Below, in pieces: positions 5,060 to 61,107 of a stretch of DNA of 64,000 nucleotides (position 1 is the stretch's first letter; the number at the start of each line of letters is the position of its first letter). Under the pieces are notes generated by a model, which saw only the letters and a list, made by a program, of their open reading frames with translations, was not told the origin of the DNA and made no database searches. The stretch comes from Escherichia phage EJP2: sequence record OQ411014.1. One strand, 5' to 3'. The position numbers and the translations under genes are program-made.

Positions 5060-5614
5060 ATGGATTTTACAGAGATACCATTCGGACAACGCAGTGAAAG
5101 ATTTGACTGTGCGTTCGTTTGGATCTACGCTAAGAATTGCACACCATACAAGGATTATCCATATAATGATATTCCTAACGTATCTTTAGTACTGACAGAG
5201 TTACGCTTTGATGGTCTAATGGGTGCGGTTGGTGGAGCAGTTGAGGATGATGATCCTTCATTGGAAGTGGCAGTGCAACGTGAAGCCTTAGAGGAAATAA
5301 ACTTTTCTCTTGACATTACTAATCTGAAACCGTTATTATCATTACGTTCCCCATACGGAGCACATAACCATAGTTTCTCGTACGAAGTACAGTACGATGA
5401 GCTACTAGAGATTCGGAACAACGCATACAAAGGTGCTCACTTCAGTGCTGAAAATGCGGGTGTAAATCTGATTCACGTATGTCGCTATACGAAGGGAAGA
5501 GGGAACGAATGTGGTTACAATAACATTCTTACACAGAATTTTATTGGCACATCCAAACTGGAACTAGAGCGTTTAGTTCATAATGAAAATTTACTAATAA
5601 ATTACCTTGCATAA
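5060..5614 (+). CDS. Nudix-like hydrolase (imperfect Nudix box)
   Basis: GGAVEDDDPSLEVAVQREALEEINF contains REALEE with altered spacing from the canonical Nudix box. Confidence 0.45.
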   Translation: MDFTEIPFGQRSERFDCAFVWIYAKNCTPYKDYPYNDIPNVSLVLTELRFDGLMGAVGGAVEDDDPSLEVAVQREALEEINFSLDITNLKPLLSLRSPYGAHNHSFSYEVQYDELLEIRNNAYKGAHFSAENAGVNLIHVCRYTKGRGNECGYNNILTQNFIGTSKLELERLVHNENLLINYLA

Positions 5615-5624
5615 AGGATAAAAT

Positions 5625-5957
5625 ATGTATAAGATGTTTATAGACGACCTTCGGGATGCAGAGAAGCATTACCCAAATGAAGGATTCATCGTCACAAGGA
5701 CTTACAATGAAGCTGTACAGTACGTACAAGAACATGGTCTACCTAGTTTTGTTTCATTCGACCATGACTTGGGCGACACTGACAGTACTGATGAGAAGAC
5801 TGGATATTCTTTTGCTAAGTTCCTCATCGAGTACATGATTGATAACGATTTGCGGGAACCGTTTGAGTACTTTATTCACAGTGCTAATCCAGTTGGTGCA
5901 GAGAATATCAAACAGTACTTGCAAAATGGGTTCAACTTTATCCAAGGGCAAGCATGA
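5625..5957 (+). CDS. hypothetical protein
   Basis: 110-aa ORF with aaggat RBS. Confidence 0.45.
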   Translation: MYKMFIDDLRDAEKHYPNEGFIVTRTYNEAVQYVQEHGLPSFVSFDHDLGDTDSTDEKTGYSFAKFLIEYMIDNDLREPFEYFIHSANPVGAENIKQYLQNGFNFIQGQA

Positions 5958-14526: not shown

Positions 14527-16332
14527 ATGAAACATGATAAACTATACGCAGATGTGAACGATTTCTTGAGTCAGAGTAATCCTGATATTCTACAAGAGAA
14601 TGCTAACAAAGATTCCAAAATGGTGAATACTCACAGGGATTTACTCGCTGGGATACTTTCCAAACACTTCGCAGAGGAAGTTATCTCAGATGATTTGATG
14701 AAGTGGCATACTGAAGGTTATGGTCATATTCATGATTTAGATTACTACATTAGCCCGTTGACTAACTGTTGTTTAGTGAACTATCAAGAGATGCTAGAGA
14801 ATGGTTTCAAATTGGGTAATGCACAAGTTGGTTCCCCTAATAGCATTGGTGTAGCGTGTACAGTACTGACACAGATAGTACTGGCAGTTTCAGCTTCACA
14901 GTACGGTGGACAGTCCTTAGCTCACATTGATGCCGGATTAGCTCCGTATGTTCGGAAATCTCACGAACGTCTATTGAAGGAACAAGAAAAGTATAATCTA
15001 CCAGATGAATACGTTACTTCTGCTCTTGAGAAGGAAGTGTATGATTCTATGCAAGCAGTACTGTACCAAGTGAATACCATCACAAGTTCCAATGGACAAA
15101 CGCCTTTTATATCTATTAGCTTAGGTTTGGACACTTCTGTGTATGGTCGGATGATTACTTCTGCGTACTTGAAAGTTCATGAGAAAGGTCTAGGTAAAGA
15201 TGGTACTACTCCTGTATTCCCTAAAGTTATTTTCTTTTTGGATGAAGGTACTAACTTCAAGCCTAATGACCCAAATTACGATCTAAAGGTACAAGCGATG
15301 CAATGTGCATCAAAACGCATCTATCCTGACTTTGTTTCAGTACCGAAGAATAAAGAAGTAACTGGCAGTACAAGTACAGCAGTAACACCTATGGGTTGTC
15401 GTTCTTTCCTGTCACAATGGAAAAACGATGACGGTACTGAACAATACAACGGTCGCTTCAACTTAGGTGTAGTATCCATCAACTTACCGCTAATTGCTCT
15501 TGAAAGTCCGTCAGAAGAGGATTTCTATAGTAATGTGCGTCATCATATGGATATTGCATTCAGAGCACAGATGAACCGTGTAGAGCGTCTAAAGAGCATG
15601 AAAGCGAAGCAGAACCCTACACTTTTCATGGAAGGGGCAATTGCTCGTCTAAAAGCAGATGACACTATCGAAGAGCTATTTTATGATGGTTATGCGAGTA
15701 TTAGTATTGGATATGTCGGTTTAGCTGAATGTTCAGACATTTTACGTTCAGGACTGGATAAAGATTTTTGTGTAGAAATCCTGACCTTTATGAAAAATAT
15801 TTGTAATTCCTATACTGAAAACTCCAAAATCGCTTTTAGTCTGTACGGTACACCTGCGGAGTCATTATGCTACAAATTTGCGAAATGTATCGAGAAAAAG
15901 CATCCTTCAGTACTGAAACGTGATTTTATCACTAACTCATTCCATCAACCAGTTTGGGTGGATAGTACTCCATTTGAGAAGTTCAAATACGAAGAAGGGT
16001 TCTCTTTGCTCAGTAATGGTGGTAATATCAGTTACGTTGAAACTCCTAACCTTGCACAGAATATGAAGGCTCTAGAAGGTATTATTGACTATGCTTATCA
16101 CAGAATCCATTATTTTGGAATCAACCAGCCTGTTGACAGATGTTATGCTTGTCAGTTCAATGGTGAGTTCAAAGTAGATAAAAATGGGTTTCATTGTCCA
16201 CAATGTAATAACCGAGACGAAACGAAGATGTCTGTCATTAGACGTGTTTCTGGGTACTTGAGTTCTCCTAATAGCCGTCCTTTCAACAAAGGTAAGCAAC
16301 AGGAAGTAATTGTAAGGGTAAAACATAAATGA
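14527..16332 (+). CDS. nrdD: anaerobic ribonucleoside-triphosphate reductase
   Basis: 601 aa; C-terminal RVSGYLSSPNSRPFNKGKQQE glycyl-radical-type tail; immediately followed by radical-SAM activase. Confidence 0.85.
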   Translation: MKHDKLYADVNDFLSQSNPDILQENANKDSKMVNTHRDLLAGILSKHFAEEVISDDLMKWHTEGYGHIHDLDYYISPLTNCCLVNYQEMLENGFKLGNAQVGSPNSIGVACTVLTQIVLAVSASQYGGQSLAHIDAGLAPYVRKSHERLLKEQEKYNLPDEYVTSALEKEVYDSMQAVLYQVNTITSSNGQTPFISISLGLDTSVYGRMITSAYLKVHEKGLGKDGTTPVFPKVIFFLDEGTNFKPNDPNYDLKVQAMQCASKRIYPDFVSVPKNKEVTGSTSTAVTPMGCRSFLSQWKNDDGTEQYNGRFNLGVVSINLPLIALESPSEEDFYSNVRHHMDIAFRAQMNRVERLKSMKAKQNPTLFMEGAIARLKADDTIEELFYDGYASISIGYVGLAECSDILRSGLDKDFCVEILTFMKNICNSYTENSKIAFSLYGTPAESLCYKFAKCIEKKHPSVLKRDFITNSFHQPVWVDSTPFEKFKYEEGFSLLSNGGNISYVETPNLAQNMKALEGIIDYAYHRIHYFGINQPVDRCYACQFNGEFKVDKNGFHCPQCNNRDETKMSVIRRVSGYLSSPNSRPFNKGKQQEVIVRVKHK

Positions 16333-16799
16333 ACTACCAAACTATCGTAATTGATGATATGGTGAACGGTGAGGGCATTCGCTGCTCTCTGTTCGTCAGT
16401 GGGTGCAGTCATGGCTGTGAAGGGTGTTTCAACGAAAAAGCGTGGGATTATCGCTCTGGATTTGAATACACTACCAGTACTGAAGAATGTATCCTAGAAG
16501 AGCTTCAGAAGGATTATGTGAGTGGTTTATCGCTATTAGGTGGTGATCCACTCATGCCGAAGAACATTATTGAGGTAATTGCTCTTTGTAAGAAAGTAAA
16601 GGAACAATTCCCAAATAAGACCATTTGGTGCTGGAGTGGGTACACTTTAGAGGAAATCCAAGAGAATCATGCTAAGGACGTATTACAGTACTTAGATGTT
16701 CTTGTGGATGGAAAGTTCGACTTAGAGAAGTATGACAGTACTGTTCAGTTCAGGGGTTCGAGTAATCAACGAATTCTGTATAAAGGTACTGACTTTTGA
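16329..16799 (+). CDS. nrdG: anaerobic RNR activating protein (radical SAM)
   Basis: CSHGCEGC radical-SAM cysteine cluster; 156 aa; ATGA overlap with nrdD. Confidence 0.8.
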   Translation: MNYQTIVIDDMVNGEGIRCSLFVSGCSHGCEGCFNEKAWDYRSGFEYTTSTEECILEELQKDYVSGLSLLGGDPLMPKNIIEVIALCKKVKEQFPNKTIWCWSGYTLEEIQENHAKDVLQYLDVLVDGKFDLEKYDSTVQFRGSSNQRILYKGTDF

Positions 16800-16881: not shown

Positions 16882-19581
16882 ATGACTAAAAGAATTTATG
16901 GAGGCTTAGACGTTACTCATAACGTAACAGTTCAGGGCAAAAGGACAGTACAAGGTATCAATAATCAAGTATTCGATGCGAATGGTGATATGAAGATTAA
17001 TACCTATACTCAACAGGAATTACTCGATATTGTTAGCTTAATGCCAATATCACACTACGGTACTCACAACTACTTACCTGCTGGTGTTAGTGGGGACTTT
17101 AATGGTGCAGCGGAGAACCCAGCACAACGTAGAAACAAAATCCTACTGGAGAACGATGGTACACTAGTAATGCTACGTGCTGGTACAAACGGCAGTGTAG
17201 AAGGTTTATTCTATGCTTACCTACCAAATGCACTATCAGTTACTGATTTAGGTAGAGGTGTAAACACTGGTCGTCAGTACAAGCCAGGTTATTTTGGTAG
17301 TACTAAAACTGCTTTCGGTTTGTATAATACAGATGAGAACATTCTTCTAGGAAGATATTCTGATTCGTCAAATGGCAGTACTGGATGGTTTATTTCCATT
17401 ACTAACGGAACACTAGATGACACACAACATAATGGTTTCTTCTTGAATGCTTATACTGATATTGCCCCTCAAGGTGGTGTTGAATATGCAATGATGGCAG
17501 AAGATGGTTCAATTTACGTATTCAGTGTAGATACAAGTAATAACGAATTTAATATTGCAGTTGTTAGAGTTACTTTCAATTTGACGAATAAAACTTACAC
17601 AGCGTCAAGAATCACTGGTTGGACAACCAAGACGTTCTATAATACTACATATTCAGCAGATACTAATATTGTAGTGACGAAGAAAGTAAACTCAACTAAT
17701 ATCGCTGATAAGCCATATATGTACGTTCCGAATGGACTACTTGGTTTAGGTGTATACATGACGTCAATTGACTTGTGTGTAGCACAACAGCCAGGTACAC
17801 AGAACTTCCGCTTTAGAGTTAATGGTGATGCGTGGGCTACTATGGCAACGTATAATACCAGACCACAGCACAGTTATAGTTTCAACTTCAATATGAGTAC
17901 TAAACAATGTACGCTGGATGCAGGGAATGACATTGGTTCAAACGCAGCACCATTTATTGTTACTAATACAGGTTCACAATTAATTGCTTCTGGTAACGTA
18001 ATCAACCAAGATGATTTATATAATCACGGTGGGTGGAGAAACATTTATAGTTCTTACTATTACTTGGATATTGGTACAGTATTCTGTACTACGAGTCCTA
18101 ACTTGTCAGAACCATTGGGGATTGAAAAAGCAACATACCCAGCACAAAGTGTTTACAGTATGCTTAACGTAAGAGCAGTCAATGCATCAGCATTCAATAA
18201 AGGGAATCTTGGTCCTTCGTTCGGTTCAGCAGTTGGTTCTTACATTAACGGCGTAGAATTACTACCAGGTAACAGTACTAAACAATTCTCTCGTTCTTCT
18301 GGTACTGGTGCATTTAGACCATCATATGCAGTACATGCTGCTTCACCTACCTTTACGTTTAAATCTCTTTCAAGAGGTACAATGAAAGGTTATGAGCCTA
18401 CTGCTGAACGTGATTTCATTACAGATAATATAAACAACCGTATTTTCATTAGTACTGTATCTGGTTCGAATGTTACGACAAATGGTGGGATTTTCATGGT
18501 TGGTCAACGTTATTCACAGTCTTTGTCATTTGACAAACATGGTGTTGGTACTGGAACAATCTCGGTCACTGATTCAGTACTGGTAAATTTCAGAAATTCT
18601 GAATATGCAAAAGTACCTGCTTCATGGAATCTTTCTACAGCAGCAACTAAAGATATGACACTATTTGTTCCACAACAAACTGATATTCCTGCTTTTGTAA
18701 TGTTAAGTACTGTTACTACTGGAAATAAAAACTATATTAAGATTGTGGAAGTGAACGTTAATACCAGAAGTGGTAATATTACTTCAATTAGTTTTAAGCG
18801 TAATGTAATTGAAAACGTTTATGGTGATAGTTTTACACCAAATGGTGCTGGTGGTTTTGCTTCATCTTCTGTAGGTTTAACAATATATGATGGCGGTTCG
18901 TTCTACTTTATTGGTGGTTCAGATCCTTTATCTCACCCAACAATTGGCAATACGAATACACATCAATTCAGAGCTATTGTTACTAAAAGTACTGCACAAT
19001 TTGACAGCTTTATTATTTCAGGTTCACATGCTAGTTATGAACAGGGTATTCAACCTGCTGCTCTTCCTGGTATTGGCTTTGGGTATTTCCAAGCAATTGA
19101 CTACTCAAACAAAATGACATTCCAGAAATGTGGTACTACTGTTGCTGAATATAATGCATGGACAGCAATTGGTGATCCAATTAACGTAGTTTCACAAGAC
19201 GTTGCACAAGGATTTGTTGTTTACTTCAACGAAGAAACACCAGTAATGCTCAGTGGTAAGTCATTTACGATGCCAGTTCAAAGTGTTGATTTGAAAACTA
19301 TTAAAGCTAACCCAGCGAATACGACATTCCACATTTATGTGAGAATGAACCAAGGTAATGCAGAATATCATATAACTACTGAAGTTATTTCCGAAACTGG
19401 TAGTACTGCATATAACGTATTCTGGATTGGTACTGTTACTACGGATGCTATCCAAATCTCGACTATTAATGTATTCAAGCGTTCTCGTTTGGATGTATTT
19501 GGTGCATCACTTGAACCAACCGGATCATCATTCCCAGTGAGTTATGGTCTACCATCAGGCAACGGAACAATTAACTGGTAA
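16882..19581 (+). CDS. putative tail fibre / receptor-binding protein (paralog A)
   Basis: 899 aa, S/T/G/N-rich; N-terminal similarity to 20188 ORF; shared C-terminal motif ending GTINW. Confidence 0.5.
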   Translation: MTKRIYGGLDVTHNVTVQGKRTVQGINNQVFDANGDMKINTYTQQELLDIVSLMPISHYGTHNYLPAGVSGDFNGAAENPAQRRNKILLENDGTLVMLRAGTNGSVEGLFYAYLPNALSVTDLGRGVNTGRQYKPGYFGSTKTAFGLYNTDENILLGRYSDSSNGSTGWFISITNGTLDDTQHNGFFLNAYTDIAPQGGVEYAMMAEDGSIYVFSVDTSNNEFNIAVVRVTFNLTNKTYTASRITGWTTKTFYNTTYSADTNIVVTKKVNSTNIADKPYMYVPNGLLGLGVYMTSIDLCVAQQPGTQNFRFRVNGDAWATMATYNTRPQHSYSFNFNMSTKQCTLDAGNDIGSNAAPFIVTNTGSQLIASGNVINQDDLYNHGGWRNIYSSYYYLDIGTVFCTTSPNLSEPLGIEKATYPAQSVYSMLNVRAVNASAFNKGNLGPSFGSAVGSYINGVELLPGNSTKQFSRSSGTGAFRPSYAVHAASPTFTFKSLSRGTMKGYEPTAERDFITDNINNRIFISTVSGSNVTTNGGIFMVGQRYSQSLSFDKHGVGTGTISVTDSVLVNFRNSEYAKVPASWNLSTAATKDMTLFVPQQTDIPAFVMLSTVTTGNKNYIKIVEVNVNTRSGNITSISFKRNVIENVYGDSFTPNGAGGFASSSVGLTIYDGGSFYFIGGSDPLSHPTIGNTNTHQFRAIVTKSTAQFDSFIISGSHASYEQGIQPAALPGIGFGYFQAIDYSNKMTFQKCGTTVAEYNAWTAIGDPINVVSQDVAQGFVVYFNEETPVMLSGKSFTMPVQSVDLKTIKANPANTTFHIYVRMNQGNAEYHITTEVISETGSTAYNVFWIGTVTTDAIQISTINVFKRSRLDVFGASLEPTGSSFPVSYGLPSGNGTINW

Positions 19582-20187: not shown

Positions 20188-22941
20188 ATGTCATCTAAAA
20201 GAGTAATAGGTTCAGTTGAGTTTTTAAGTAACTTAGCTGTAAATGGGAAATACGCAATGCGTTCCTTTAATGGTGTCAATCCAGATGCCAATACTGGTAT
20301 AATCACTTATCCATTTTATACCAGAGAAGAAGTTCAGAAGATTCTCGATATACTCCCTGTTTCACGTATAGGTGAAATGGACTATCTACCACCGAACGTA
20401 AGTGGTTCCTTTAGTGGAGCTACTTCATTCTCGAATGATCGCAGAGTTCAGCCATGTATTATTGAAGATGATGGTACAGCCGTAATTATTCGCCCTGGTA
20501 CGAATGGTAGTCAGTTTGATTTTTATTATGCTTACATCCGTAACGTCAGAAATATCCCAACTCTAACACAAAGTGATATTGTTCAGACGAATACCAGATA
20601 TCACCCATCATATCTTACTAGTACTCAAAAGATTGAACAATTTTACGGTACTGATGGATATGATCTTCTTTGGTACAGAGTTTCTGACTCAGTTAATAGT
20701 TCAAACTATTTTGCAATTACATTAACTAACGGTTCCTTTAACGTAGTAGGTCACCAACATGCTCTTATTCCACAAACATCTATGCCTAATTTCACACCAG
20801 CATATGCTCATATCGTGAATGGTTCAGTATACATGTGGGGCTATGACAGTACTTTAGGTTCAGGTAGAGCATTGAAGTTATACACTATCCCAACTAGTTC
20901 GTTGCGTTCTGGTGTTACTACTGGTTTAACTGCTGTCACTGGATTTAATGGAAAAACTATCAACGGTAATGCTTATACAGCAGCCAGTACTGCTAGGATT
21001 TATGATACATATGCAAGTACTACCAGTACTGCTGATTGCTTAATTCAATACACGTCTAACATGTATTCTCCTGAATATCACGACTACGCCATCTCCAATG
21101 CAATGGCGGCTGGTAATGCTGATAATACACAGATTCGTTTCACTATGTTCCCTACATATCGTTACGGTTCTGCGTATGGTTTTAGTGGTATATTCATGTA
21201 CGCAATTAGTTTAGTCTATAATATCAGTACTAAAACATTTACGTACGATACTACATCTTTAGGTAAAATTGTGGTGAATGCTACACTAAATGGTTCTACA
21301 ATGACCTATACAGAAACTGCTAACCCATATTTGGTTGATGCAACTTCATGGCGTGGTTTTGGTGCAAGTCTAGGTAACTGTGGAACAATCTGTCAAGCAG
21401 GTGATGGTTTCATGGTGAGTACTCGCTCTCGTTGGGCAAGTTCTGCTCCTTACGGTGTCAGTACTTCTAAGATTAATAACTTTACTTCTCAATTCGATTC
21501 TATTAAAATGACTGGTAGAAGTGTTACTGCAAATACTCAACTATTTGCTAACCCAATCTACGGTTCTGCAATTGGTGAGAACTTGATGGGTCCACGTCTG
21601 TTAAGTAAAACTCGTATGATTCTTGCATGTTCAGGTACATACGATGGTGTATCCAACGCAAGCTATGACAATACTGTAGTTGCGGACTTCGGTACTGATT
21701 CGAACTTCTCATACAAGTCAATGACTCAAGGTACACTTACTGGGTATGCACCACAAACGTATCGTAAATTCGCTAATAATGACAACTTCAGACTATCAGA
21801 ATTAGTAACACTAATGGACAGTACTGGTAATGTTCAAGCAAGTAGTACTGCATTCATCGAGAACGTTAAGTACACTGGTGGGATTGGTATTAACCCTGAT
21901 ACACTTGAATACACTGGCAGTACTGTTAATATGTCCAATGCAGTTATCCAATCACTTAAACAAGGTATTGCAACTTCTGCTGGTATTCCATTGAATACAA
22001 GTTTGCTTACAGTGTATTACATTCCTGATACATCATATTGCAATCACCAAGCAGTACTAATGGTTCGTAATCCTGATAACACTGGCGTTGTAGTACTAGC
22101 TGAAATGAATTTAACTACAAGTACTTCTGGAAGTACAATTACTGTTACTGGTGGTTCTGTAATAAGAACTTTCGTTCAGAACAGACCAAATATTACTTCA
22201 GTAAATGGTGGGAACTACGCTCGTAACGTTGGTGTTTGTGCTGGTAAATTCAGTGGTTTTAATTACCTTAGTGTTCACTCAGCGAATAACTTTGGTGTTC
22301 CTGGTGATGCAAGGTCTTATTCGTTCTTTGCAAAAGTTAAGGGTGGTGCTATAGTATCACAGAGAATCGATGAGTCCTATTATTCACAGACATATGGCAG
22401 GACTGGTGGTTTCCTACCAGGGAAAGGTTTCGGTTATTATGATAACTCAGTGAGTGATTACCAGACCAAATCCGTGTTCCAACTCTTCGGTACTACTGAA
22501 GCACAGATGGATGCACTAATTGCTGGTACTGGAACATCAACACCTGTTGTTGTTATGTCTCAAGAAGTTCCTGAAGGTTTTAGTGTTTACTTTACACAAG
22601 AACTACCAGTATTCTTAGGTGGTATGTACGATAAGCTACCAATCCAGACAGTTGATTTGAGAACTATCAAAGCTGATCCATCCAATACTACTTTCTATAT
22701 CTACGTATCAATGGATAGAAGTAAAGGTGAAGCATCATACGTTATCAGTACTGCACTCTTGGATGAAACTCTAACCAGAGCATTCATTGGTACTATTGTG
22801 ACTATTGATGCAGGTATTGACCGGATTGATGCAGAGAAGGTAACACGCTTCTTGACTTACAGACCAAGTACTTACAAGAGGGGTTCTGCAATCCCTGCGA
22901 GTACTGGTGTTCCATCTGGGACTGGTTCACGCTGGCATTAA
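20188..22941 (+). CDS. putative tail fibre / receptor-binding protein (paralog B)
   Basis: 917 aa; N-terminal region YTREEVQKILDILPVSRIGEMDYLPPNVSGSFSGA parallels the 16882 ORF; C-terminus RPSTYKRGSAIPASTGVPSGTGSRWH. Confidence 0.5.
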   Translation: MSSKRVIGSVEFLSNLAVNGKYAMRSFNGVNPDANTGIITYPFYTREEVQKILDILPVSRIGEMDYLPPNVSGSFSGATSFSNDRRVQPCIIEDDGTAVIIRPGTNGSQFDFYYAYIRNVRNIPTLTQSDIVQTNTRYHPSYLTSTQKIEQFYGTDGYDLLWYRVSDSVNSSNYFAITLTNGSFNVVGHQHALIPQTSMPNFTPAYAHIVNGSVYMWGYDSTLGSGRALKLYTIPTSSLRSGVTTGLTAVTGFNGKTINGNAYTAASTARIYDTYASTTSTADCLIQYTSNMYSPEYHDYAISNAMAAGNADNTQIRFTMFPTYRYGSAYGFSGIFMYAISLVYNISTKTFTYDTTSLGKIVVNATLNGSTMTYTETANPYLVDATSWRGFGASLGNCGTICQAGDGFMVSTRSRWASSAPYGVSTSKINNFTSQFDSIKMTGRSVTANTQLFANPIYGSAIGENLMGPRLLSKTRMILACSGTYDGVSNASYDNTVVADFGTDSNFSYKSMTQGTLTGYAPQTYRKFANNDNFRLSELVTLMDSTGNVQASSTAFIENVKYTGGIGINPDTLEYTGSTVNMSNAVIQSLKQGIATSAGIPLNTSLLTVYYIPDTSYCNHQAVLMVRNPDNTGVVVLAEMNLTTSTSGSTITVTGGSVIRTFVQNRPNITSVNGGNYARNVGVCAGKFSGFNYLSVHSANNFGVPGDARSYSFFAKVKGGAIVSQRIDESYYSQTYGRTGGFLPGKGFGYYDNSVSDYQTKSVFQLFGTTEAQMDALIAGTGTSTPVVVMSQEVPEGFSVYFTQELPVFLGGMYDKLPIQTVDLRTIKADPSNTTFYIYVSMDRSKGEASYVISTALLDETLTRAFIGTIVTIDAGIDRIDAEKVTRFLTYRPSTYKRGSAIPASTGVPSGTGSRWH

Positions 22942-23021: not shown

Positions 23022-23333
23022 ATGCAATACAGAACACCAGTACTGATCAATCGATACAAAAGTAAAGACTTTGATGTTTACATTGGTCGTGGGACAAAAT
23101 GGGGAAACCCGTTCCCAATCGATGAAGCATGTGGTCAAACTCGCCTAATCGTTATTGAAATGTACAGACACCAAATGTATGAATGGCTAGAAAATGGAAC
23201 CATCACTGTTCAGGATATTTTGGATTTATCGGGAAAAACCATTGCATGTTCTTGTGCACCAAAGGCATGTCATGGAGATATAATCATAGAGGTATTCAAT
23301 GAAATAGTGAGTATGATGAATGCAGGAACATAA
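23022..23333 (+). CDS. DUF4326-like small protein
   Basis: FDVYIGRGTKWGNPF resembles the YIGR...WGNPF signature recalled for DUF4326. Confidence 0.55.
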   Translation: MQYRTPVLINRYKSKDFDVYIGRGTKWGNPFPIDEACGQTRLIVIEMYRHQMYEWLENGTITVQDILDLSGKTIACSCAPKACHGDIIIEVFNEIVSMMNAGT

Positions 23334-23721
23334 AATATATGACATCATTAAAACTCTTAAAACTTGTAAGAGAGTAACATTATCTGAAAAAGTTTACTGC
23401 GGTTTAAATGATAAAAAGTGTATCATGTTCGATTGTATAGATGATGGTGAATCCAGCATTAGTATTGCTAGTCCTAAGAATCCTAATGGTGATTTTATCT
23501 TCTGTACAGTTACTGATGAACTTGAATTTGTACTCGTCAAGAGTGATGGTGCACAATCTGAAATCTTAGACTTGAGTACTGAAGATAGATTCTTTCAACG
23601 AAGTTTACTCTTTGACTTATCATTAACCTATGATGAGTATCAATCAGTACTTCATAATTTCAACAAATTTTATAACGGACTAATCAGTACTGTTATAATC
23701 TATTCAACCGAGGTCATATAA
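23320..23721 (+). CDS. hypothetical protein
   Basis: 133-aa ORF overlapping neighbours by a few nt. Confidence 0.45.
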   Translation: MQEHKIYDIIKTLKTCKRVTLSEKVYCGLNDKKCIMFDCIDDGESSISIASPKNPNGDFIFCTVTDELEFVLVKSDGAQSEILDLSTEDRFFQRSLLFDLSLTYDEYQSVLHNFNKFYNGLISTVIIYSTEVI

Positions 23722-24968
23722 TGTCAAAAAATATGCTCGAAAATATCATCGTAAAACACTACGCTGGTAGTATCGCTTATGGTACAAATACTCCCTTATC
23801 AGATGTTGATTTCCGTGGAATCTTTATGGCTCCAAAGGAATTCATCTTGTCTCCGTTCGTAAACGTAGGGGAAGCATCTGATTCAAAAGAAGAAGATACT
23901 AAATTCTACGAACTCAATAAGTTCATGAAACTAAATGTCGATGCGAACCCGAATATCCTCGAAACACTATGGGTCGATGATGAACACATCGTTGAAAGTA
24001 CTGAAATGTACCAACATCTTCGCAAGCACAGAAGTGAACTACTAAGTAATAAGATTGCATTTACTTATACTGGATTCGCATATAACCAAGTTCACCGCAT
24101 GAGCAACCATAATGGCTGGATGGATAAAGAGAGAATTGCTGAACGCAGACTCAATGAAATCATCGAAAAACATCCTTGTATTGAAGTGAAAGAGTGGATG
24201 TACGAATATTTCCCTCATTATGTCATTGACCGGATTGACTTCTCTAATGTAAAAGGTTATAGTGATGATGTTGATTTGGACTTGGATAAGTTCTTGCGTG
24301 ATAGTTCTCTGCAACTGATCAGTACTAAATCCTTAGCACAGCATCACTTCGTGCGTTTAGTACATAATTACTTACCACAGAAAGTACTTGACCGTGATTT
24401 CAACTTAGCTCATTTCAATACGAATCATGAACTAATTCACTACGGTGATAATATCTTTGCAGTAGTTCCAACTCAGGGGAAATCGAAAGTACTTTCAGTA
24501 CATAACGATTTAGTTTGGGATTCAAAGAAAGAACGTACTCCTGAAGAACTAAAAGTACTTCCATCTTTGATTGTGAAATTCAATCGCAAAGAATATGAAG
24601 AACTGAATGATAAACGCAAGCACTATCACAAGTGGAAAGAGAACCGTAACAGTATTCGTGCTGAACTGGAGTCAAAGAATGGCTTCGATACTAAGCACGC
24701 AATGCACGTGGTTCGTTTATTACGTACAGCAAAAGAAGCACTGTTGACTGGTGTCATCAACGTCAAACGTCCTGATGCGGAAGAATTACTTGCAATCCGT
24801 AATGGTGCTTGGACATATGAAGAAATGATGAAGTACTTTGAATCTGAATCTAAATTAGTAATGAACTTAGGTAAAACATCAAAAGTACTTCCATCGTCCC
24901 CAAACCGTAAACTAGCAACTCAATTAGTACTAGACTTACGTGAGATGCATTGGAAACAAGGAAAATAA
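23721..24968 (+). CDS. Pol-beta superfamily nucleotidyltransferase (PF10127-like)
   Basis: N-terminal AGSIAYGTNTPLSDVDFRGIF matches the GS...G...SDxDxRG signature; 415 aa. Confidence 0.5.
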   Translation: MSKNMLENIIVKHYAGSIAYGTNTPLSDVDFRGIFMAPKEFILSPFVNVGEASDSKEEDTKFYELNKFMKLNVDANPNILETLWVDDEHIVESTEMYQHLRKHRSELLSNKIAFTYTGFAYNQVHRMSNHNGWMDKERIAERRLNEIIEKHPCIEVKEWMYEYFPHYVIDRIDFSNVKGYSDDVDLDLDKFLRDSSLQLISTKSLAQHHFVRLVHNYLPQKVLDRDFNLAHFNTNHELIHYGDNIFAVVPTQGKSKVLSVHNDLVWDSKKERTPEELKVLPSLIVKFNRKEYEELNDKRKHYHKWKENRNSIRAELESKNGFDTKHAMHVVRLLRTAKEALLTGVINVKRPDAEELLAIRNGAWTYEEMMKYFESESKLVMNLGKTSKVLPSSPNRKLATQLVLDLREMHWKQGK

Positions 24969-25927: not shown

Positions 25928-26293
25928 ATGACAACTAAAATTTTCCCTCAGAGTCTTATGAAGGATCTATCTTACGGTTACGGTACTACTAAGGTCATGG
26001 GTGATTATAATGAAAAGACTGATTCCTTCGCACCGGATATCGAATATGAAGTCTTACACAATGAACAGTGTAATACTACTCGTTGGAACAGTGTTCATGA
26101 TTTAGTTTTTCTTGACAAGAGTACTGGGAAAACGTATCATACACAGTATGAAGTTGGTCTTACCGAATCGCAGTATTTGAGTGCATTTGACTATGATAAA
26201 GAAGGTGTCGAATGTACTGAAGTACAAACGTGGGAAGAGCAAGTTACCTATACAGTGTTAAAATGGCGGGATAAAAATGATTCAAGATATTGA
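25928..26293 (+). CDS. hypothetical protein
   Basis: 121-aa ORF. Confidence 0.45.
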   Translation: MTTKIFPQSLMKDLSYGYGTTKVMGDYNEKTDSFAPDIEYEVLHNEQCNTTRWNSVHDLVFLDKSTGKTYHTQYEVGLTESQYLSAFDYDKEGVECTEVQTWEEQVTYTVLKWRDKNDSRY

Positions 26294-26666
26294 TTTTTCT
26301 AATTTGGAATACGTCAGTGCAGTCAAAAATATCAGTACTGAAGATGATATCAAATACGTTACTACTACGATTACGTTCTTGCGTAAAGAAGATAGTATTG
26401 CTCATCTAACTGGACTTGAGAAGACTTTCGCTGAACTCAAATTACAAGAAGAATCAAAGTACATCAAACTTGCTTCGGTGTACACTACGGTTGAAGATGT
26501 TATCCAGAAAGATGAGCCAATTAAGGTGATTTTTTCTGGGATAAATAAAAAGTACCGGCAGGTTACTCGTTCTGAAACGGATGAGAACATGCACATTATT
26601 CTGAATGACATTCAGTTCGTAGATATGGTTTTTGACCGTTCTGAAAATAAACATGTTTACATGTAG
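26277..26666 (+). CDS. hypothetical protein
   Basis: 129-aa ORF overlapping upstream gene. Confidence 0.45.
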   Translation: MIQDIDFSNLEYVSAVKNISTEDDIKYVTTTITFLRKEDSIAHLTGLEKTFAELKLQEESKYIKLASVYTTVEDVIQKDEPIKVIFSGINKKYRQVTRSETDENMHIILNDIQFVDMVFDRSENKHVYM

Positions 26667-29178: not shown

Positions 29179-29625
29179 ATGAGCGATTTTGATGCAGCAG
29201 TAGATATGCGTAACATACTGGATTACATGGATGATACAGTACAAGAGAACGGTTCTTCTGAACTACTTGAGTTCGTTGAGGATTGTATCTTTTTGGAATC
29301 ATTGAGTCACCACTGGCACTTACAGTGTAAGATTTATTCCAAACATATGGAACTCGATGAACTATACAAAGAAATTGGTGAATACGTTGATTCCTTCATT
29401 GAAGGACTAATGAGTACTCGTGGTGTTCTACCTATGGTATCGGAGAAGCAATACTTCTTCGTAGGATTAGATCAATGTATTCCAGTACTGGAACAGTACG
29501 TACAACAAGCTAAAGTCATCCATGAGATGTTAGCTGCTGAAGATGATTTCGGTTCAGTGAATAGTATTGAAGACATTATTAGTTTTCTAGAACGTACTCT
29601 TTACAAACTGAAGTGTCTAGACTAA
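29179..29625 (+). CDS. hypothetical acidic protein
   Basis: 148-aa ORF with gagg RBS. Confidence 0.45.
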   Translation: MSDFDAAVDMRNILDYMDDTVQENGSSELLEFVEDCIFLESLSHHWHLQCKIYSKHMELDELYKEIGEYVDSFIEGLMSTRGVLPMVSEKQYFFVGLDQCIPVLEQYVQQAKVIHEMLAAEDDFGSVNSIEDIISFLERTLYKLKCLD

Positions 29626-33441: not shown

Positions 33442-34071
33442 ATGACAACTCACGTTAGGTATTATATTGCATATAATGGAAGACCAGTTCGTTCTATTGG
33501 ATTAGATCTTGAGCCAGTAATGTCTGTACAGACTAATCTATACTTCAGTACTGAAGAAGAAGCAGACTCTTTCATTATGACTAGGATTGCAACTGCGTCC
33601 ACTACACTTTATCATATTCATTTTGATTGTATTGATAAGTACTCAATCGTCAAAGAAATTGTTCAGTTGGAACCGTGCAGTACTAAAACTAATTATATGC
33701 GAAACTATACTCTAACTTGGTTGCGATTACTCGACCAGGATATCTGTACTGATTCTATGATTTCCACTACTATACGTGCGTTCGTCATGCGTGGGTTTAG
33801 TACATCAGGATTGGATTTAGAAGAAGTGAAAAACTTGATTTTGGGTAATCCAAAACTTCAAAAAACCATTGACAAACTTATTCCAAAGCATATAATCTCT
33901 AATATTGAAAATTACATGCAAGATGGTTTAGTCAATGCTCCGGTGGAAGAGCTTGAATTCTTGAATCTAACAATTTCAGATGAAATGAAATTTGATCTTG
34001 ACTTCGAAGAACTCTTCCCTTACAATAAGTTCAAACCAACAAAATGGGAAAATCATGGAACTAGTAACTGA
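33442..34071 (+). CDS. hypothetical protein
   Basis: 209-aa ORF. Confidence 0.45.
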   Translation: MTTHVRYYIAYNGRPVRSIGLDLEPVMSVQTNLYFSTEEEADSFIMTRIATASTTLYHIHFDCIDKYSIVKEIVQLEPCSTKTNYMRNYTLTWLRLLDQDICTDSMISTTIRAFVMRGFSTSGLDLEEVKNLILGNPKLQKTIDKLIPKHIISNIENYMQDGLVNAPVEELEFLNLTISDEMKFDLDFEELFPYNKFKPTKWENHGTSN

Positions 34072-35308
34072 AGGTCGCAAACTCGTAACAATTCGTAAAA
34101 TCAATGCAATTGATGCAATTGAAGGTGCAGATCTGATTGTCAAAGCAACTGTTGACGGTTGGGATGTAGTTGTGAAGAAAGATGAATTCAACGTTGGGGA
34201 TTACTGTGTATTCTTCGAAATCGATTCATTCCTTCCAGTACAGACACCACAATTCGCATTCTTGGCGGGTTCAGGCTGTAAACTCGATGAACAGAATGTA
34301 GAACGTTTCCGTCTACGTACTCGTAAACTTCGCGGGGTAGTCTCTCAAGGCTTGGCTCTACCAGTATCTCTATTTGAGGCAGTACTGGAAGCTATTGACG
34401 AAGCTGGTGGTCATCACCCTGACTCGTACACTACAACGGCACGTGAAGAACTCCTAGTGAGTCTAGAGGCGAATCGTGAAGGCATTGAGCAATTCCTCAA
34501 TGTAACCAAATACGAGCGTCCTGATGAGCGTAATGGCGGTACTGGTGCATCTAAGTGCAAAGCTGCTGGTAACTTCCCTATCGTCATTCCTAAGACTGAT
34601 GAAGACCGTATTCAGAACGTAATGGGTAAGTACTCTCAGACTATGAAAGGTGTTGCATTCCGTAAATCACTGAAACTGGATGGTTCTAGCCAGACAATTG
34701 CATTCATTAGCAATCCTGATTTCTTTGTAGATAAAGTTGATGAAGAAGTCCGTGCATGGAATGAAGAGACTCAAGAACTTGAAGTTGTTGAAGTGAAGCC
34801 ATACCCGTTCCAATGGGAAGATGGTCAGGTAGCAGTATGTTCTCGCAATCTTGCGTTGAAATTTGATGCTGAATCTCACTTCTGGAAAGCAGCACTGAAA
34901 GATGATATTCCAGCACGTCTGAAAGAGTACTGTGTTCGTAATGACCGCCAACTAGCACTACAAGGCGAAGTAATGGGTCCTGGTATCCAAGGGAACCGTG
35001 AAGAACTGACCGAACATCAATTCTACGTATTCCGTATTTGGGATATTGATAATAAATGTTTCCTTGATGATGGTGATTTCTTGACACTATCTGCACTACT
35101 GGGATTGACTACAGTACCGCAAGGTGATATCGTGTACTTCTTCGATGAATACACTTCTATCAAAGAAGCATTGGCATCTGCTGACCACGCATCTATCAAG
35201 CATAAGATCGCGGAAGGCGATGTGTTCAAAAGTGTATCTAAAGTGAATGGTGTTACTGTACACTTCAAGGTAATCAACAACAAATTCTTGCTCAAATGTG
35301 AGGACTAA
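34055..35308 (+). CDS. ATP-dependent RNA ligase-like nucleotidyltransferase
   Basis: start set at ATG 34055; candidate motif I lysine in SLKLDGSS (KxDG) about 170 aa from the N-terminus, preceded by an N-terminal domain. Confidence 0.5.
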   Translation: MELVTEGRKLVTIRKINAIDAIEGADLIVKATVDGWDVVVKKDEFNVGDYCVFFEIDSFLPVQTPQFAFLAGSGCKLDEQNVERFRLRTRKLRGVVSQGLALPVSLFEAVLEAIDEAGGHHPDSYTTTAREELLVSLEANREGIEQFLNVTKYERPDERNGGTGASKCKAAGNFPIVIPKTDEDRIQNVMGKYSQTMKGVAFRKSLKLDGSSQTIAFISNPDFFVDKVDEEVRAWNEETQELEVVEVKPYPFQWEDGQVAVCSRNLALKFDAESHFWKAALKDDIPARLKEYCVRNDRQLALQGEVMGPGIQGNREELTEHQFYVFRIWDIDNKCFLDDGDFLTLSALLGLTTVPQGDIVYFFDEYTSIKEALASADHASIKHKIAEGDVFKSVSKVNGVTVHFKVINNKFLLKCED

Positions 35309-39891: not shown

Positions 39892-41001
39892 ATGAAAAAG
39901 TATTTGGTTGGTGGTTTTGTACGCGATAAGCTACTTGGCTTACGTCCTAAAGACAAAGATTATGTCTTGGTAGGAGCGACCCCGCGTGATATTCAGTACT
40001 TAAAAAGTATTGGATATGAGCAGGTTGGTGCAGACTTCCCTGTGTTCTTGGATAAGGACGGCAATGAGCACGCACTTGCCCGTACTGAACGCAAGGTGTC
40101 TGATGGCTATAATGGCTTTGAAGTGAATACACAAGGTGTAACGCTTCAGGAAGACTTGTATCGTCGTGATTTGACCATCAATGCGATTGCCTTTGACCCA
40201 CAGTTAAAGGTACACGTAGACCCATATGGTGGCAAAGAAGACCTAAAGAACAAAGTACTGCGACATGTATCTGAACATTTTGAAGAAGATCCAGTACGTA
40301 TTCTGCGTATCGCTCGTTTCAGTGCACGTTATTCGGACTTTACAGTACATGAAAGTACTGAATCGTTGATTCGCCGTATGATCAATCGTGGCGATATTTC
40401 TGAATTGACTAAAGAGCGAGTGTACGTAGAATTCGAGAAAGCATTCTCCGAAGAAGAGCCAGTTATCTTCCTGGAGAAGCTATCCAAATGGGGAGCCATG
40501 AGTAAGTTGATTCCTGGTAATCCTGAAAGTACTTACAAGACTATTGAATACATTAGTTCCAATTGTACTTTAGCGTATAAGGATTTTTACTTGTGGGCTG
40601 AACTAATTGGTTCTAATGAAGTACAAAAAGATGGAGTCTTTGGTCAGGTCAAGCTACCATCGCGTTACTCTAAGTTCAGTGCGTATGTATGCAAGCACGC
40701 GGATAGTATCAAGAATTTCCGTAAGAGCACCCCAGAAGAAATGGTAAATATTCTTACTGAGATGAGCGTAAAGAACAACGGTGGTGAAGAGTACTTGTAC
40801 AAAGTACTGGAATACTTTATCCTACGTAAAGAGATTGATTTGGACTTAGAAGATTTGATTATTCGAGTTTATGATCGCTTTGAGAATACGGTCATTGGTA
40901 ATATTGATCAGATGCTTAAAGATGGAACTATCACTTCACGTGAAATTCCTTCTTTTGTGAAAGAGAAGCGAATCGCTGAGGTGGAAAAAATCTTCAAATA
41001 A
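39892..41001 (+). CDS. CCA-adding tRNA nucleotidyltransferase / poly(A) polymerase family
   Basis: GGFVRDKLLG, DKDYV and RRDLTINA head-domain motifs; 369 aa. Confidence 0.8.
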   Translation: MKKYLVGGFVRDKLLGLRPKDKDYVLVGATPRDIQYLKSIGYEQVGADFPVFLDKDGNEHALARTERKVSDGYNGFEVNTQGVTLQEDLYRRDLTINAIAFDPQLKVHVDPYGGKEDLKNKVLRHVSEHFEEDPVRILRIARFSARYSDFTVHESTESLIRRMINRGDISELTKERVYVEFEKAFSEEEPVIFLEKLSKWGAMSKLIPGNPESTYKTIEYISSNCTLAYKDFYLWAELIGSNEVQKDGVFGQVKLPSRYSKFSAYVCKHADSIKNFRKSTPEEMVNILTEMSVKNNGGEEYLYKVLEYFILRKEIDLDLEDLIIRVYDRFENTVIGNIDQMLKDGTITSREIPSFVKEKRIAEVEKIFK

Positions 41002-41002
41002 A

Positions 41003-41032
41003 TTGAGATATTTTCGAAAAAAGTGATATATT
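41003..41032 (+). promoter_or_regulatory. sigma70-like promoter TTGAGA-N18-TATATT with TGA
   Basis: same architecture as the family, weaker -10. Confidence 0.4.
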
Positions 41033-41064
41033 ATAAGTATCTGAGATATGTAAGAGATAAAAAT

Positions 41065-41742
41065 ATGCGATATACATGCGGGATAATATTTTATCGAAAC
41101 GGTCAGATACTTGTAGGTCACACGACTGGTCAGAGTCATTGGGATTTACCGAAAGGTAAGACTGAAGGTTCTGAGACATTCAAGGAAGCGGCAGTTCGTG
41201 AATGCTATGAAGAAACTGGATACAGTATTGATGAACGAGATTTACTGTACTTAGGTGATGTATCATACAGAAAGGGAAAGCGTTTAGTACTGTTCTTTTA
41301 CACAGCCAAGACGAAACCAATTGCTGAAGAGTTGCAATGTATCAGTACTTACACGAATAAGTACGGTATTGTACGTCCAGAGTTGGACAAATTCAAGTAC
41401 ATAGACATTGAGGACTGTGAACTCTACTTGACTGAACGGATGTGTGATAGTATAATCAAAGCTATTACACAATTTGATAAAAAGACAAATAAAAAGGAAG
41501 ATAATATGAAAGTTGTAATTTATGGTCGTAAAGCTGGTTGTAAGTGGTGTACTACTGCTAAAGAAGTTTGTGAAACTAACTCAATTGATTTTGATTTCAT
41601 TGATTTAGATGAAGCTGGTATTGATGGTGCTAAACTCGCTGAAATTTGTGGCACTCCAGTACGTACTGTTCCACAAATTTTCGTTGACGATCAACACATT
41701 GGTGGTTGTACTGAGTTTATTTCGCACCTATCCAAAATGTAA
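41065..41742 (+). CDS. Nudix hydrolase fused in frame to a glutaredoxin/NrdH-like domain
   Basis: perfect Nudix box GKTEGSETFKEAAVRECYEETG; C-terminal MKVVIYGRKAGCKWC (CxxC) preceded by internal RBS aggaag at 41494 and ATG 41506, no stop between the domains. Confidence 0.6.
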   Translation: MRYTCGIIFYRNGQILVGHTTGQSHWDLPKGKTEGSETFKEAAVRECYEETGYSIDERDLLYLGDVSYRKGKRLVLFFYTAKTKPIAEELQCISTYTNKYGIVRPELDKFKYIDIEDCELYLTERMCDSIIKAITQFDKKTNKKEDNMKVVIYGRKAGCKWCTTAKEVCETNSIDFDFIDLDEAGIDGAKLAEICGTPVRTVPQIFVDDQHIGGCTEFISHLSKM

Positions 41743-42299: not shown

Positions 42300-42309
42300 T
42301 AATTTAAAA

Positions 42310-42336
42310 GGACTCCTAAATCAAGAGTCCTTTTTT
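42310..42336 (+). terminator. hairpin ggactc/gagtcc followed by T6
   Basis: 6-bp stem, 9-nt loop, T-tract. Confidence 0.7.
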
Positions 42337-42350
42337 CATCGAGATAAAAT

Positions 42351-42851
42351 ATGAATAACATCACACATCACGTAGGAAATCTTTTCAACTTATATAAAGA
42401 AGTAGGTGAAGAGAATAACAGTACTGATAGTGAAGTAATGAACGTTATTATTCATGGTTGTAACGCACAAGGTCGTATGGGTTCTGGTTTTGCTAAAGAA
42501 TTACGTGCACGTTTTCCTGGTGCTTATAACGAATATAAAAAACAGTACGAAAGTACTGGACTTCAGTTAGGAAAGAACGTATACTACTTACCACATGATG
42601 AAAACACCCTTATCGTAAATGCTATCACTCAAGAGTATTACGGATATGATGGTAAGAAGTACGTTAGTTATGACGCAATTGATGATTGTATGATTGAACT
42701 AAATACTCTACTTTCTGGAATGGATGGAAATATCCAAATTCACTTCCCAAAAATCGGAGCCGATTTAGGTGGTGGTAATTGGGAAGTAATCAAAAGTATC
42801 ATTGAAACACGGGTAATCTTTGGTACTAAGCATCTATATACCCTAGTATAA
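42351..42851 (+). CDS. macro-domain protein (ADP-ribose binding/processing)
   Basis: VIIHGCNAQGRMGSGFA and IHFPKIGADLGGG resemble the two macro-domain glycine-rich motifs; 166 aa. Confidence 0.6.
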   Translation: MNNITHHVGNLFNLYKEVGEENNSTDSEVMNVIIHGCNAQGRMGSGFAKELRARFPGAYNEYKKQYESTGLQLGKNVYYLPHDENTLIVNAITQEYYGYDGKKYVSYDAIDDCMIELNTLLSGMDGNIQIHFPKIGADLGGGNWEVIKSIIETRVIFGTKHLYTLV

Positions 42852-60233: not shown

Positions 60234-60530
60234 ATGACTCGTGATGAAATCATTCAAATGATTCTCACTGAGCGTAATCGTCAAACAGAGAATCCAAACA
60301 CTGTTTCTGACTTACACAAAACCAAAAATGATTGGGCTGCTTTGGCAGCCTATTATTTGTTTGAAGGTGCAAGTCGTTCCGATAAACATGTATCTTTCGA
60401 AGAGTTTCGTAGTTCTCTAGTTCAAACTGCTGCCGTCATTATTGCAGCACTAGAAACCAGCTATGCTCATGAGAATGAAACGGTTCGAGATTTACTATCT
60501 CAACTGGAAAATAAAGATGACAAGCAATGA
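60234..60530 (+). CDS. hypothetical protein
   Basis: 98-aa ORF. Confidence 0.45.
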   Translation: MTRDEIIQMILTERNRQTENPNTVSDLHKTKNDWAALAAYYLFEGASRSDKHVSFEEFRSSLVQTAAVIIAALETSYAHENETVRDLLSQLENKDDKQ

Positions 60531-61107
60531 GTTACAACTTGCTCTTAGTGATCTAGATAATGTATGTTATAGTGGCGGTGCTAAAGGGGCAGACCGCCTC
60601 TTTGGTATCTGGGCTACTGAAAATGGTTTTCAAGAAGTACATTTCTCTTTCAAGAAACATAATTATGTTGTAGATGAAAGTACTATCATTGAAATTCCAG
60701 ATTCGATTCTACAGGATAGTACTGTAATCGATAAACTCAAGAAAGCGAACTACTCTTTAGGAAGAAGTATTCCAAAGAAAGGTTCTTATGTTTATAATCT
60801 ACTTGCACGTAATACGTTTCAAGTTCTTCTTACTGAACGTGTGTATTGCATCAGTCCTTTAGCATCACCAACAACCGTTTCAGGTGGTACAGCATGGGCT
60901 GTTCAAATGTACATTGACCAGTACGAGAATCCTGTAATTTACGGTTATGACCCACTTCGGAAAGAAGCATATCAGTACTGTAATACTAAGAAAGAATTCA
61001 TTACAGTTGATTCTGTTCCAGCACCTACTGGTAAATGGACAGGTATTGGTTCACGTGAAACTACAGAGAATCACATGCAAGCATTCGTTAGTTACTTCAG
61101 GAGTTGA
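60517..61107 (+). CDS. Rossmann-like nucleotide-processing protein (SLOG/LOG-like, tentative)
   Basis: YSGGAKGADRLFG and SPTTVSGGTAWAVQ resemble the glycine-rich LOG/SLOG motifs; start at ATG 60517. Confidence 0.3.
   Translation: MTSNELQLALSDLDNVCYSGGAKGADRLFGIWATENGFQEVHFSFKKHNYVVDESTIIEIPDSILQDSTVIDKLKKANYSLGRSIPKKGSYVYNLLARNTFQVLLTERVYCISPLASPTTVSGGTAWAVQMYIDQYENPVIYGYDPLRKEAYQYCNTKKEFITVDSVPAPTGKWTGIGSRETTENHMQAFVSYFRS

Follow-up and report, generated by a model that had tools for sequence, protein, structure and literature searches.

A gene of Escherichia phage EJP2 (sequence record OQ411014.1) raises the question of whether phages of its kind carry a dedicated eraser of ADP-ribose and, if they do, from which molecule the ADP-ribose would be removed. 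The gene lies at 42351-42851 in the stretch of 64,000 nucleotides (64 kb) that we analyzed as a whole and call the window; the window is that of a Rak2/GAP32/PBECO4/121Q-like jumbo myovirus, and the gene encodes a macro-domain protein. By analogy with characterized relatives, the protein probably acts (we put the probability at roughly 0.55) as a Gln-type orphan ADP-ribosyl glycohydrolase that erases DarT2 thymidine ADP-ribosylation from phage single-stranded DNA (ssDNA). The open reading frame (ORF), its fold, its residue correspondences, the conservation of its family and its synteny were established in this analysis, and the features of the gene on which the argument rests are as follows (nucleotide positions in the window).

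42351-42851, plus strand: ATG-started ORF of the macro-domain protein, 166 amino acids (aa) plus stop, the end coordinate taking in the stop codon
42453-42494, plus strand: loop-1 (substrate-binding) motif HGCNAQGRMGSGFA, residues 35-48 (H35-G-C-N38-A-Q-G-R-M-G-S-G-F-A48)
42624-42632, plus strand: I92-T93-Q94, with Q94 at the site of the catalytic Lys in DarG (K80) and TARG1 (K84)
42633-42668, plus strand: 'mobile loop' EYYGYDGKKYVS, residues 95-106 (12 residues), with the conserved basic residues K102/K103
42744-42776, plus strand: loop-2 (phosphate-binding) motif FPKIGADLGGG, residues 132-142, with D138 at 42762-42764

Both strands were checked for overlapping ORFs of at least 40 aa at 42351-42851, and none was present. 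The sequence-only reading of this locus had recognized Gly-rich motifs fitting a stand-alone macro domain, and the two motifs are indeed the ADP-ribose-binding loops of the macro fold, corresponding to the substrate- and phosphate-binding loops in the naming used for SCO6735. The hidden Markov model (HMM) search that it had proposed matched the Pfam family Macro (PF01661) above the gathering cut-off, with 24 bits against a gathering score of 22 (E 4e-5, profile positions 1-115 of 118), a narrow margin for a single sequence; a profile of the family matched solved macrodomains at E 3e-25 in a profile-to-PDB comparison. Structure prediction, on whose outcome that reading had staked its claim, confidently returned a three-layer alpha/beta/alpha macro fold with macrodomains as all of its best fold matches, and the single domain spans all 166 aa, in agreement with a stand-alone protein. 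The HMM match, the profile-to-PDB comparison and the predicted structure together confirm a genuine macro domain.

The family is large. In a large protein collection, 467 homologues were found at E<=1e-3, the top match being 99% identical, and this copy sits amid an unchanged order of genes on a Logan contig of 125 kb; tblastn at E<=1e-5 detected relatives in 1,936 of 50,697 phage records. These numbers place the ORF and its motifs far beyond chance. When column conservation was counted over 72 diverse family members, most of the invariant or near-invariant columns fell in the two loops (H35, G36, C37, N38, G41, M43, P133, G136, G141, G142 and W144). G36, N38, T93 and Q94 occur in every one of the 72 members and H35 in 70, and position 103 is K or R in 70 as well.

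The EJP2 protein, its orthologues, T4-type Tk.4, PhiKZ gp104 and solved relatives were aligned to the family HMM, most reference sequences being copied from search alignments; the loop-1 correspondences come from profile alignment to 5e3b and 5m31. The family HMM scored BT1257 at 89.9 bits, Tk.4 at 71.0, SCO6735 at 70.4, Poa1p at 53.5, Taq DarG at 51.3, PhiKZ gp104 at 47.9 and Mtb DarG at 46.0. TARG1 scored 39.9 bits, in line with 39.6-40.7 bits for the PDB TARG1 chains. In this alignment, T93-Q94 corresponds to 'T-K80' of DarG, 'T-K84' of TARG1, 'G-Q' of SCO6735 and BT1257 (Q85 in SCO6735), 'T-S' of Poa1p and 'T-Q' of Tk.4, and H35-G36-C37-N38 corresponds to H24-V25-C26-N27 of SCO6735 (numbering checked against the SCO6735 paper), with N38 equivalent to N22 of DarG. 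Judged by these aligned residues, the protein falls within the ALC1/TARG1/DarG/SCO6735 macrodomain class as a member of the Gln type; Gln94 at the catalytic-Lys site, together with the invariant N38, therefore sets it apart from the Lys type represented by DarG, TARG1 and the AdfM of chimalliviruses.

Among characterized proteins, it most resembles SCO6735 in mechanism and T4 Tk.4 in biology. SCO6735 belongs to the nearest solved structural cluster, and the likeness to SCO6735 and BT1257 extends to the Gln at the catalytic-Lys position combined with the loop-1 Asn (Q94/N38 here) and to an extended mobile loop carrying basic residues (K102/K103 here); this loop has 12 residues in the EJP2 protein, 13-14 in SCO6735 and BT1257, 10 in DarG and 8 in TARG1 and Tk.4. 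There are differences as well: SCO6735 (PDB 5E3B, Streptomyces coelicolor) and BT1257 (PDB 2FG1/2AFC, Bacteroides) are cellular and DNA-damage-linked proteins, whereas the EJP2 protein is encoded by a phage; they have 'GQ' and a Val or Ile at the residue-36 site where it has 'TQ' and Gly36; they are basic, with an isoelectric point (pI) of 8.7-9.7 against 5.45; and Gly128 and Lys34 of SCO6735 are replaced by Asp138 and Ser45.

SCO6735 cleaves off the thymidine-linked ADP-ribose that DarT attaches to ssDNA, doing so faster than DarG or TARG1, and it rescues E. coli from DarT toxicity; its activity on thymidine-linked ADP-ribose has been confirmed on synthetic substrates (PMC12879935). Its Q85A and Q85E mutants are inactive, N27S is nearly inactive and K34E nearly dead; the proposed catalytic water is placed by the V25 backbone carbonyl, and the long loop with its lysines has been implicated in the binding of ssDNA. 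If the phage protein works as SCO6735 does, its two Gly-rich loops would clamp the diphosphate and distal ribose of the ADP-ribose adduct, and Asn38 would keep Gln94 in the rotamer that hydrogen-bonds the ring oxygen of the distal ribose. The backbone carbonyl of Gly36 would then position a water for cleavage of the N-glycosidic bond to thymine N3, with the lysine-bearing mobile loop (K102/K103) helping to hold the ssDNA. In the infected cell, such an enzyme would be an AdfM-like 'orphan antitoxin' that strips the ADP-ribose added by host DarT2 from thymidines of replicating phage ssDNA and so allows replication to proceed.

The biological side of this proposal is modeled on T4. On a DarTG2 host, tk.4 was the only significant transposon-sequencing hit in the HIDEN-SEQ preprint, and a clean tk.4 deletion sensitized T4 to DarTG2; the gene was named adfM (bioRxiv 10.1101/2025.11.20.689424). 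Tk.4 and the EJP2 protein are 33.9% identical over 124 aa (E 3.5e-16), both fall in phrog_335, and both are stand-alone phage macrodomains of about 155-166 aa with a common active-site pattern (H-G-C-N, M-G-S-G, T-Q and P-[RK]-I-G-A-x-x-G-x-G-N-W). Tk.4 differs in its shorter mobile loop, in the Gly that it has at the Asp138 position and in its setting, the tk-vs region of T-even phages; moreover, its anti-DarTG2 role was demonstrated genetically, whereas that of the EJP2 protein is predicted from sequence. The reversal of DarT-type DNA ADP-ribosylation that the sequence-only reading had suggested thus gains support from experiments on Tk.4 and SCO6735: the enzymology would come from the latter and the anti-DarTG2 phenotype from the former, and the same substrate and role may hold for the EJP2 protein. 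Three points had escaped that reading: the catalytic lysine of DarG and TARG1 is absent, related phages already have the gene annotated as macro, and a sirtuin-centered set of ADP-ribose genes in the window offers a credible alternative source of substrate.

Membership in DarG itself was considered and rejected. The DarG2 macrodomain (T. aquaticus 5M31/5M3E, M. tuberculosis 5M3I) has Lys80 in 'FPTK' where the EJP2 protein has Gln94, and DarG2 possesses a C-terminal DarT-binding domain and an adjacent darT, neither of which accompanies the phage protein. The NCBIfam model of DarG (NF048014) gave 38.8 bits against a cut-off of 250 and matched only over profile positions 14-134 of 338. No darT is adjacent, the neighbors being a CCA-adding enzyme, a Nudix-glutaredoxin protein, small ORFs without Pfam hits, a neck protein and a deoxynucleoside monophosphate (dNMP) kinase, and no DarT family was seen in the scans of the 64-kb window.

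Another orphan antitoxin against DarT2 is known from chimalliviruses: biochemical and genetic work showed gp104 to be an anti-DarT2 macrodomain, which was independently named AdfM (PMC13309987). PhiKZ gp104 is likewise a stand-alone phage macrodomain of phrog_335; however, it is of true DarG2 type, with N23/K78, 'FPTK' and a match to Mtb DarG at E 9.4e-25, and the phage nucleus imports it, whereas the Rak2-like group has been described as lacking nucleus-like compartmentalization. Orthology between the two proteins was rejected, as gp104 is DarG-type and matches the EJP2 protein only over about 46 residues of loop 1, at 30% identity. The name AdfM has accordingly been coined twice for separate macrodomain types, the Lys-type PhiKZ gp104 (Cell Rep 2026) and the Gln-type T4 Tk.4 (bioRxiv 2025). 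Against DarT1, the corresponding role falls to NADAR proteins (AdfN; PMC11825919). The PHROG 335 label 'phosphatase' lumps PhiKZ gp104, T4 Tk.4 and the EJP2 protein, and this label, spread by PHROG-based pipelines, is probably misleading for the macro-domain family.

Several elements of this proposal are already published, namely the presence of macro domains among jumbo phages, which was put at 56% of them by Iyer et al. 2022 (PMC9503650), the action of phage macrodomains against DarT2 and the Gln-type mechanism; phage counter-defense against DarT2 by removal of ADP-ribose was first described in 2025-26. A discussion of the Rak2-like macro gene in an anti-DarTG2 light was not found in the literature.

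A number of points weigh against assigning the protein to DarT2. Its identity to characterized relatives is just 26-34%, and ALC1-class macrodomains are promiscuous, acting on protein Glu/Asp-ADP-ribose, O-acyl-ADP-ribose and T- or U-linked ADP-ribose on nucleic acids. The hydrolase activity of Tk.4 was inferred in the preprint and not assayed (bioRxiv 10.1101/2025.11.20.689424), and the literature yielded no experiment in which a Rak2-like phage was challenged with DarTG2. Nor is the setting of the gene specific to defense, with the CCA-adding enzyme, the RppH/MutT-like Nudix-glutaredoxin protein and virion genes as neighbors, and elsewhere the neighbors of the family are NAMPT or Pnkp-RlaP RNA-repair genes, with no DarT seen. 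Asp138 sits exactly where the G128E mutation of SCO6735 causes a substantial loss of activity, which its authors explained by rigidity of the loop and by the repulsion of DNA from a negative charge. Finally, the site of SCO6735 K34 is Ser45 in the EJP2 protein and Ser also in Tk.4; since T4 Tk.4 carries the same residue, Ser45 was rejected as a sign of inactivity. Nor was an acidic pI counted against DNA binding, since PhiKZ AdfM is biochemically active with a pI of 5.05.

Asp138 deserves closer consideration. It replaces the Gly equivalent to G128 of SCO6735 and G123 of TARG1, and the column holds D in 31, G in 31 and A in 6 of the 72 family members. Asp (rarely Ala or Glu) is limited to the closest members, at least about 53% identical, which make up the Rak2-like jumbo-phage clade; Gly is found in more distant members, in T4 Tk.4 and in all ten bacterial or metagenome-assembled genome (MAG) copies. 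Apart from Gly itself, Asp and Asn are the residues most tolerant of Gly-like backbone angles. All other catalytic-type residues are still invariant within the Asp138 clade, and in the active PhiKZ AdfM the equivalent residue is Ala, not Gly; for these two reasons, Asp138 reads as a tolerated or adaptive variant and not as decay. It is clade-specific and unexplained, the sole feature of this kind, and is possibly linked to the phage's own ADP-ribose genes.

These genes, together with genes for RNA repair, form a rich set in the window.

380-1852: NAMPT/NadV
3850-4281: Acb1-family 2H phosphodiesterase (PF23474, 1.8e-17)
4292-5050: CobB-like Sir2 (sirtuin)
5060-5614: Nudt16-like Nudix
5625-5957: cREC 'cyclic-phosphate processing' domain
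6270-7724: PIN-PhoH
23022-23333: DUF4326 protein with the motif DVYIGRGTKWGNPF, placed by the motif only, the family having been detected by Pfam in a pooled scan
23721-24968: RlaP-like RNA-repair nucleotidyltransferase, two genes downstream of the DUF4326 protein
33992-35308: RNA ligase with a PHA02142 OB-fold domain
39892-41001: CCA-adding enzyme

The ADP-ribose and counter-defense cluster at 380-7724 matches the sirtuin+2H+Nudix+cREC+PIN neighborhood of Iyer et al. 2022, which was predicted to be a nicotinamide adenine dinucleotide (NAD)-dependent RNA-repair system in Serratia phage BF-like jumbo phages (PMC9503650). For DUF4326, the function predicted in the literature is the processing of terminal ribose phosphates in ADP-ribose derivatives, and the 2H protein may be either the anti-CBASS protein Acb1 or a member of the RNA-repair pathway. 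ARAGORN found no tRNA genes in the 64-kb window, despite the RNA ligase and the CCA-adding enzyme.

Given this gene set, the main rival to a DarT2 eraser is housekeeping, in which the macro-domain protein would clean up small ADP-ribose derivatives left by the phage's own NAD-consuming enzymes; we regard this as possible but rather unlikely. The activity would be that of an ADP-ribose-1''-phosphate phosphatase (Poa1p-like), an O-acyl-ADP-ribose deacylase (OARD1/TARG1-like) or both, on substrates from the cluster of CobB-like sirtuin, 2H (Acb1-fold) protein, Nudt16-like Nudix and cREC and from the genome's RNA-repair genes, and the released ADP-ribose would feed Nudix enzymes and NAD salvage (NAMPT). 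Apart from the gene set itself, this agrees with the KptA-like route predicted by Iyer et al. 2022 to make ADPr>P and ADP-ribose-1''-phosphate, classic small-molecule substrates of macro domains (PMC9503650), and with cellular or MAG relatives that adjoin NAD-salvage or RNA-repair genes (loci L009, L011 and L010). The sirtuin cluster is, however, 37 kb from the macro gene, and its class of sirtuin is not coupled to a Macro gene according to the same authors (PMC9503650). The macro family is frequent in T-even, Pseudomonas, Rheinheimera, Acinetobacter and Aeromonas phages, among which this Sir2 is rare or lacking, and Sir2 for its part is frequent in T5-like Salmonella phages; on this distribution and the 37-kb distance, an obligate Sir2-macro coupling was rejected. 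T4 has Tk.4 but no sirtuin in the tk.4 region, and the tk.4 phenotype is DarTG2-specific. Yeast Poa1p (the ADP-ribose-1''-phosphate phosphatase, PDB 6LFQ) has Ser at the Gln94 position, and of the three residues named in its deposited mutants (H23, S30 and F152), just the His is conserved, S30 and F152 being replaced by R42 and G140; the acidic D138 in the phosphate-binding loop would, in addition, not be obviously suited to a substrate with an extra phosphate. Human TARG1/OARD1 has Lys at the Gln94 position, and its partner Asp125 corresponds to Gly140.

Asp138 and the sirtuin/2H/Nudix/cREC/DUF4326 set could instead be joined by supposing that the Gln-type macrodomain of the Rak2-like clade has diverged in mechanism or in substrate, which we consider unlikely. 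Asp138 might then serve as a general base, or the enzyme might have been retargeted from DNA to an ADP-ribose derivative made by the phage, candidates being O-acyl-ADP-ribose and the ADPr>P-derived products of the sirtuin-driven RNA-repair route; if true, this would tie the macro gene to an experimentally uncharacterized NAD-dependent RNA-repair pathway rather than to DarT2. RNA could also be the substrate in a different sense, although we think this distinctly improbable: the protein would remove ADP-ribose from uracil bases or phosphorylated RNA ends, either against host RNA-targeting ADP-ribosyltransferase toxins or in tRNA/mRNA repair. SCO6735, DarG and TARG1 do reverse uracil-linked ADP-ribosylation of ssRNA, SCO6735 efficiently (PMC13036486), and a CCA-adding enzyme and an RppH-like Nudix are encoded next to the macro gene, with the RNA ligase and RlaP in the same window and one relative closing a Pnkp-RlaP operon. 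Yet a bacterial defense that ADP-ribosylates uracil in RNA was not found in the literature consulted, the adenine modification of mRNA by CmdT has been described as irreversible, and the sole in vivo phenotype of the family concerns the DNA-modifying DarT2. Very unlikely, in our estimation, is a non-catalytic reader or sponge that would bind ADP-ribose or an immune signal derived from NAD (for example, Thoeris-type ADP-ribose derivatives) and leave macromolecular adducts intact, or else an eraser of protein ADP-ribosylation: H35, N38, T93 and Q94 are invariant or nearly so in the 72 members, including the Asp138 clade, a pattern expected of an enzyme and less of a simple binder, and no ADP-ribosyltransferase partner was detected in the window. 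The removal of DarT2-made ADP-ribose from DNA and these other explanations are compatible with each other and several functions may coexist, because ALC1-class macrodomains are promiscuous.

If the protein does remove DarT2 modifications, the large group of Rak2/GAP32/PBECO4 phages, jumbo phages that do not form a nucleus, would have an orphan antitoxin against DarTG2 among their core genes. Several of them have been considered for therapy against E. coli, Klebsiella, Salmonella and Erwinia, and the assignment would help to predict host range on DarTG2-positive strains, enteropathogenic E. coli, Pseudomonas and mycobacteria among them. The AdfM concept would gain a third lineage beyond T-even phages and chimalliviruses, with the name spanning two mechanistic types, a Lys type (DarG-like, PhiKZ) and a Gln type (SCO6735-like, comprising T4 Tk.4 and the EJP2 protein), a split that is relevant to inhibitor design and annotation. 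The main value of the assignment lies in its functional precision and in the correction of the 'phosphatase' label.

The macro gene is a core, syntenic and previously annotated gene of Rak2/GAP32/PBECO4-like jumbo phages, in which orthologues already bear the names 'macro domain-containing protein', 'ADP-ribose binding protein', 'Appr-1-p processing' or 'phosphatase'. The nearest record, Erwinia phage Hallingskeid, has 76% nucleotide identity over half of a 4-kb probe, and its macro protein is 56.5% identical. Hallingskeid and PBECO4 keep the order of a CCA-adding tRNA nucleotidyltransferase, a Nudix gene with or without glutaredoxin, two small ORFs and the macro gene, which is followed by two or three small ORFs, a gp13-like neck protein, a dNMP kinase and the tail sheath. 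Two further features lie immediately upstream of the macro gene.

41023-41742: single ORF joining a Nudix (RppH/MutT-like) and a GrxA-type glutaredoxin, a fusion also present in Hallingskeid; separate adjacent genes in PBECO4
42306-42340, plus strand: terminator-like hairpin with a 10-bp stem (AAAGGACUCC/GAGUCCUUUU), a 9-nt loop and a T-run, ending 10 nt before the macro ATG

The hairpin has a minimum free energy of -11.8 kcal/mol (z = -2.8), and a GGACTC...GAGTCCTTT stem with a T-run is also present upstream of the Hallingskeid and PBECO4 orthologues, which points to a transcript boundary, or to control of read-through, directly ahead of the macro gene; a consensus terminator scan did not call it because its 9-nt loop exceeds 8 nt. 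On the near-identical Logan contig the Nudix-glutaredoxin product is called at 225 aa, so the GTG start listed for this ORF may lie too far upstream. A role of the adjacent Nudix as an ADP-ribose pyrophosphatase partner was unsupported, the protein being RppH/MutT-like and its NudE match marginal (7.6e-4).

Among bacterial relatives, no DarT was seen beside the macro gene in the 25 families listed over 10 loci, a weak negative given that 42 single-member families were left out. In L009:1389-5192 (MAG CALMMZ010000128.1, a phage-like 36-kb contig), a NadM-like Nudix, NADAR, macro and NAMPT genes stand in a row, which places ADP-ribose erasers of the AdfN and AdfM types side by side inside an NAD-salvage block, and in L011 the macro gene adjoins NAMPT. 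An Asticcacaulis MAG (CAKZJB010000011.1, L010:15-4414) has an apparent operon of Pnkp, RlaP, an RlaP-like gene and, last, a Gln-type macro gene; its Pnkp comprises a calcineurin-type phosphatase and a ligase domain, a cellular RNA-repair context for the macro family.

Elsewhere in the window, two ORFs of 899 and 917 aa (16882-19581 and 20188-22941) without a Pfam match at E<=1e-3 lie just downstream of the anaerobic ribonucleotide reductase NrdD (14527-16332), and a radical-SAM/Fer4_12 (NrdG-like) family detected in the pooled scan is presumably ORF 16329-16799. The same scan returned thymidylate synthase, Cpn10/GroES, the ribosome hibernation factor HPF/RaiA, a phage lysozyme, endonuclease I, the N-terminal domain of a TnsA-like endonuclease and a DUF2201 metallopeptidase with a VWA domain. 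There was also a weak SLOG (YAcAr) match at 60463-61107, and two proteins of unknown function belong to DUF7325 (26277-26666) and DUF5856 (29179-29625).

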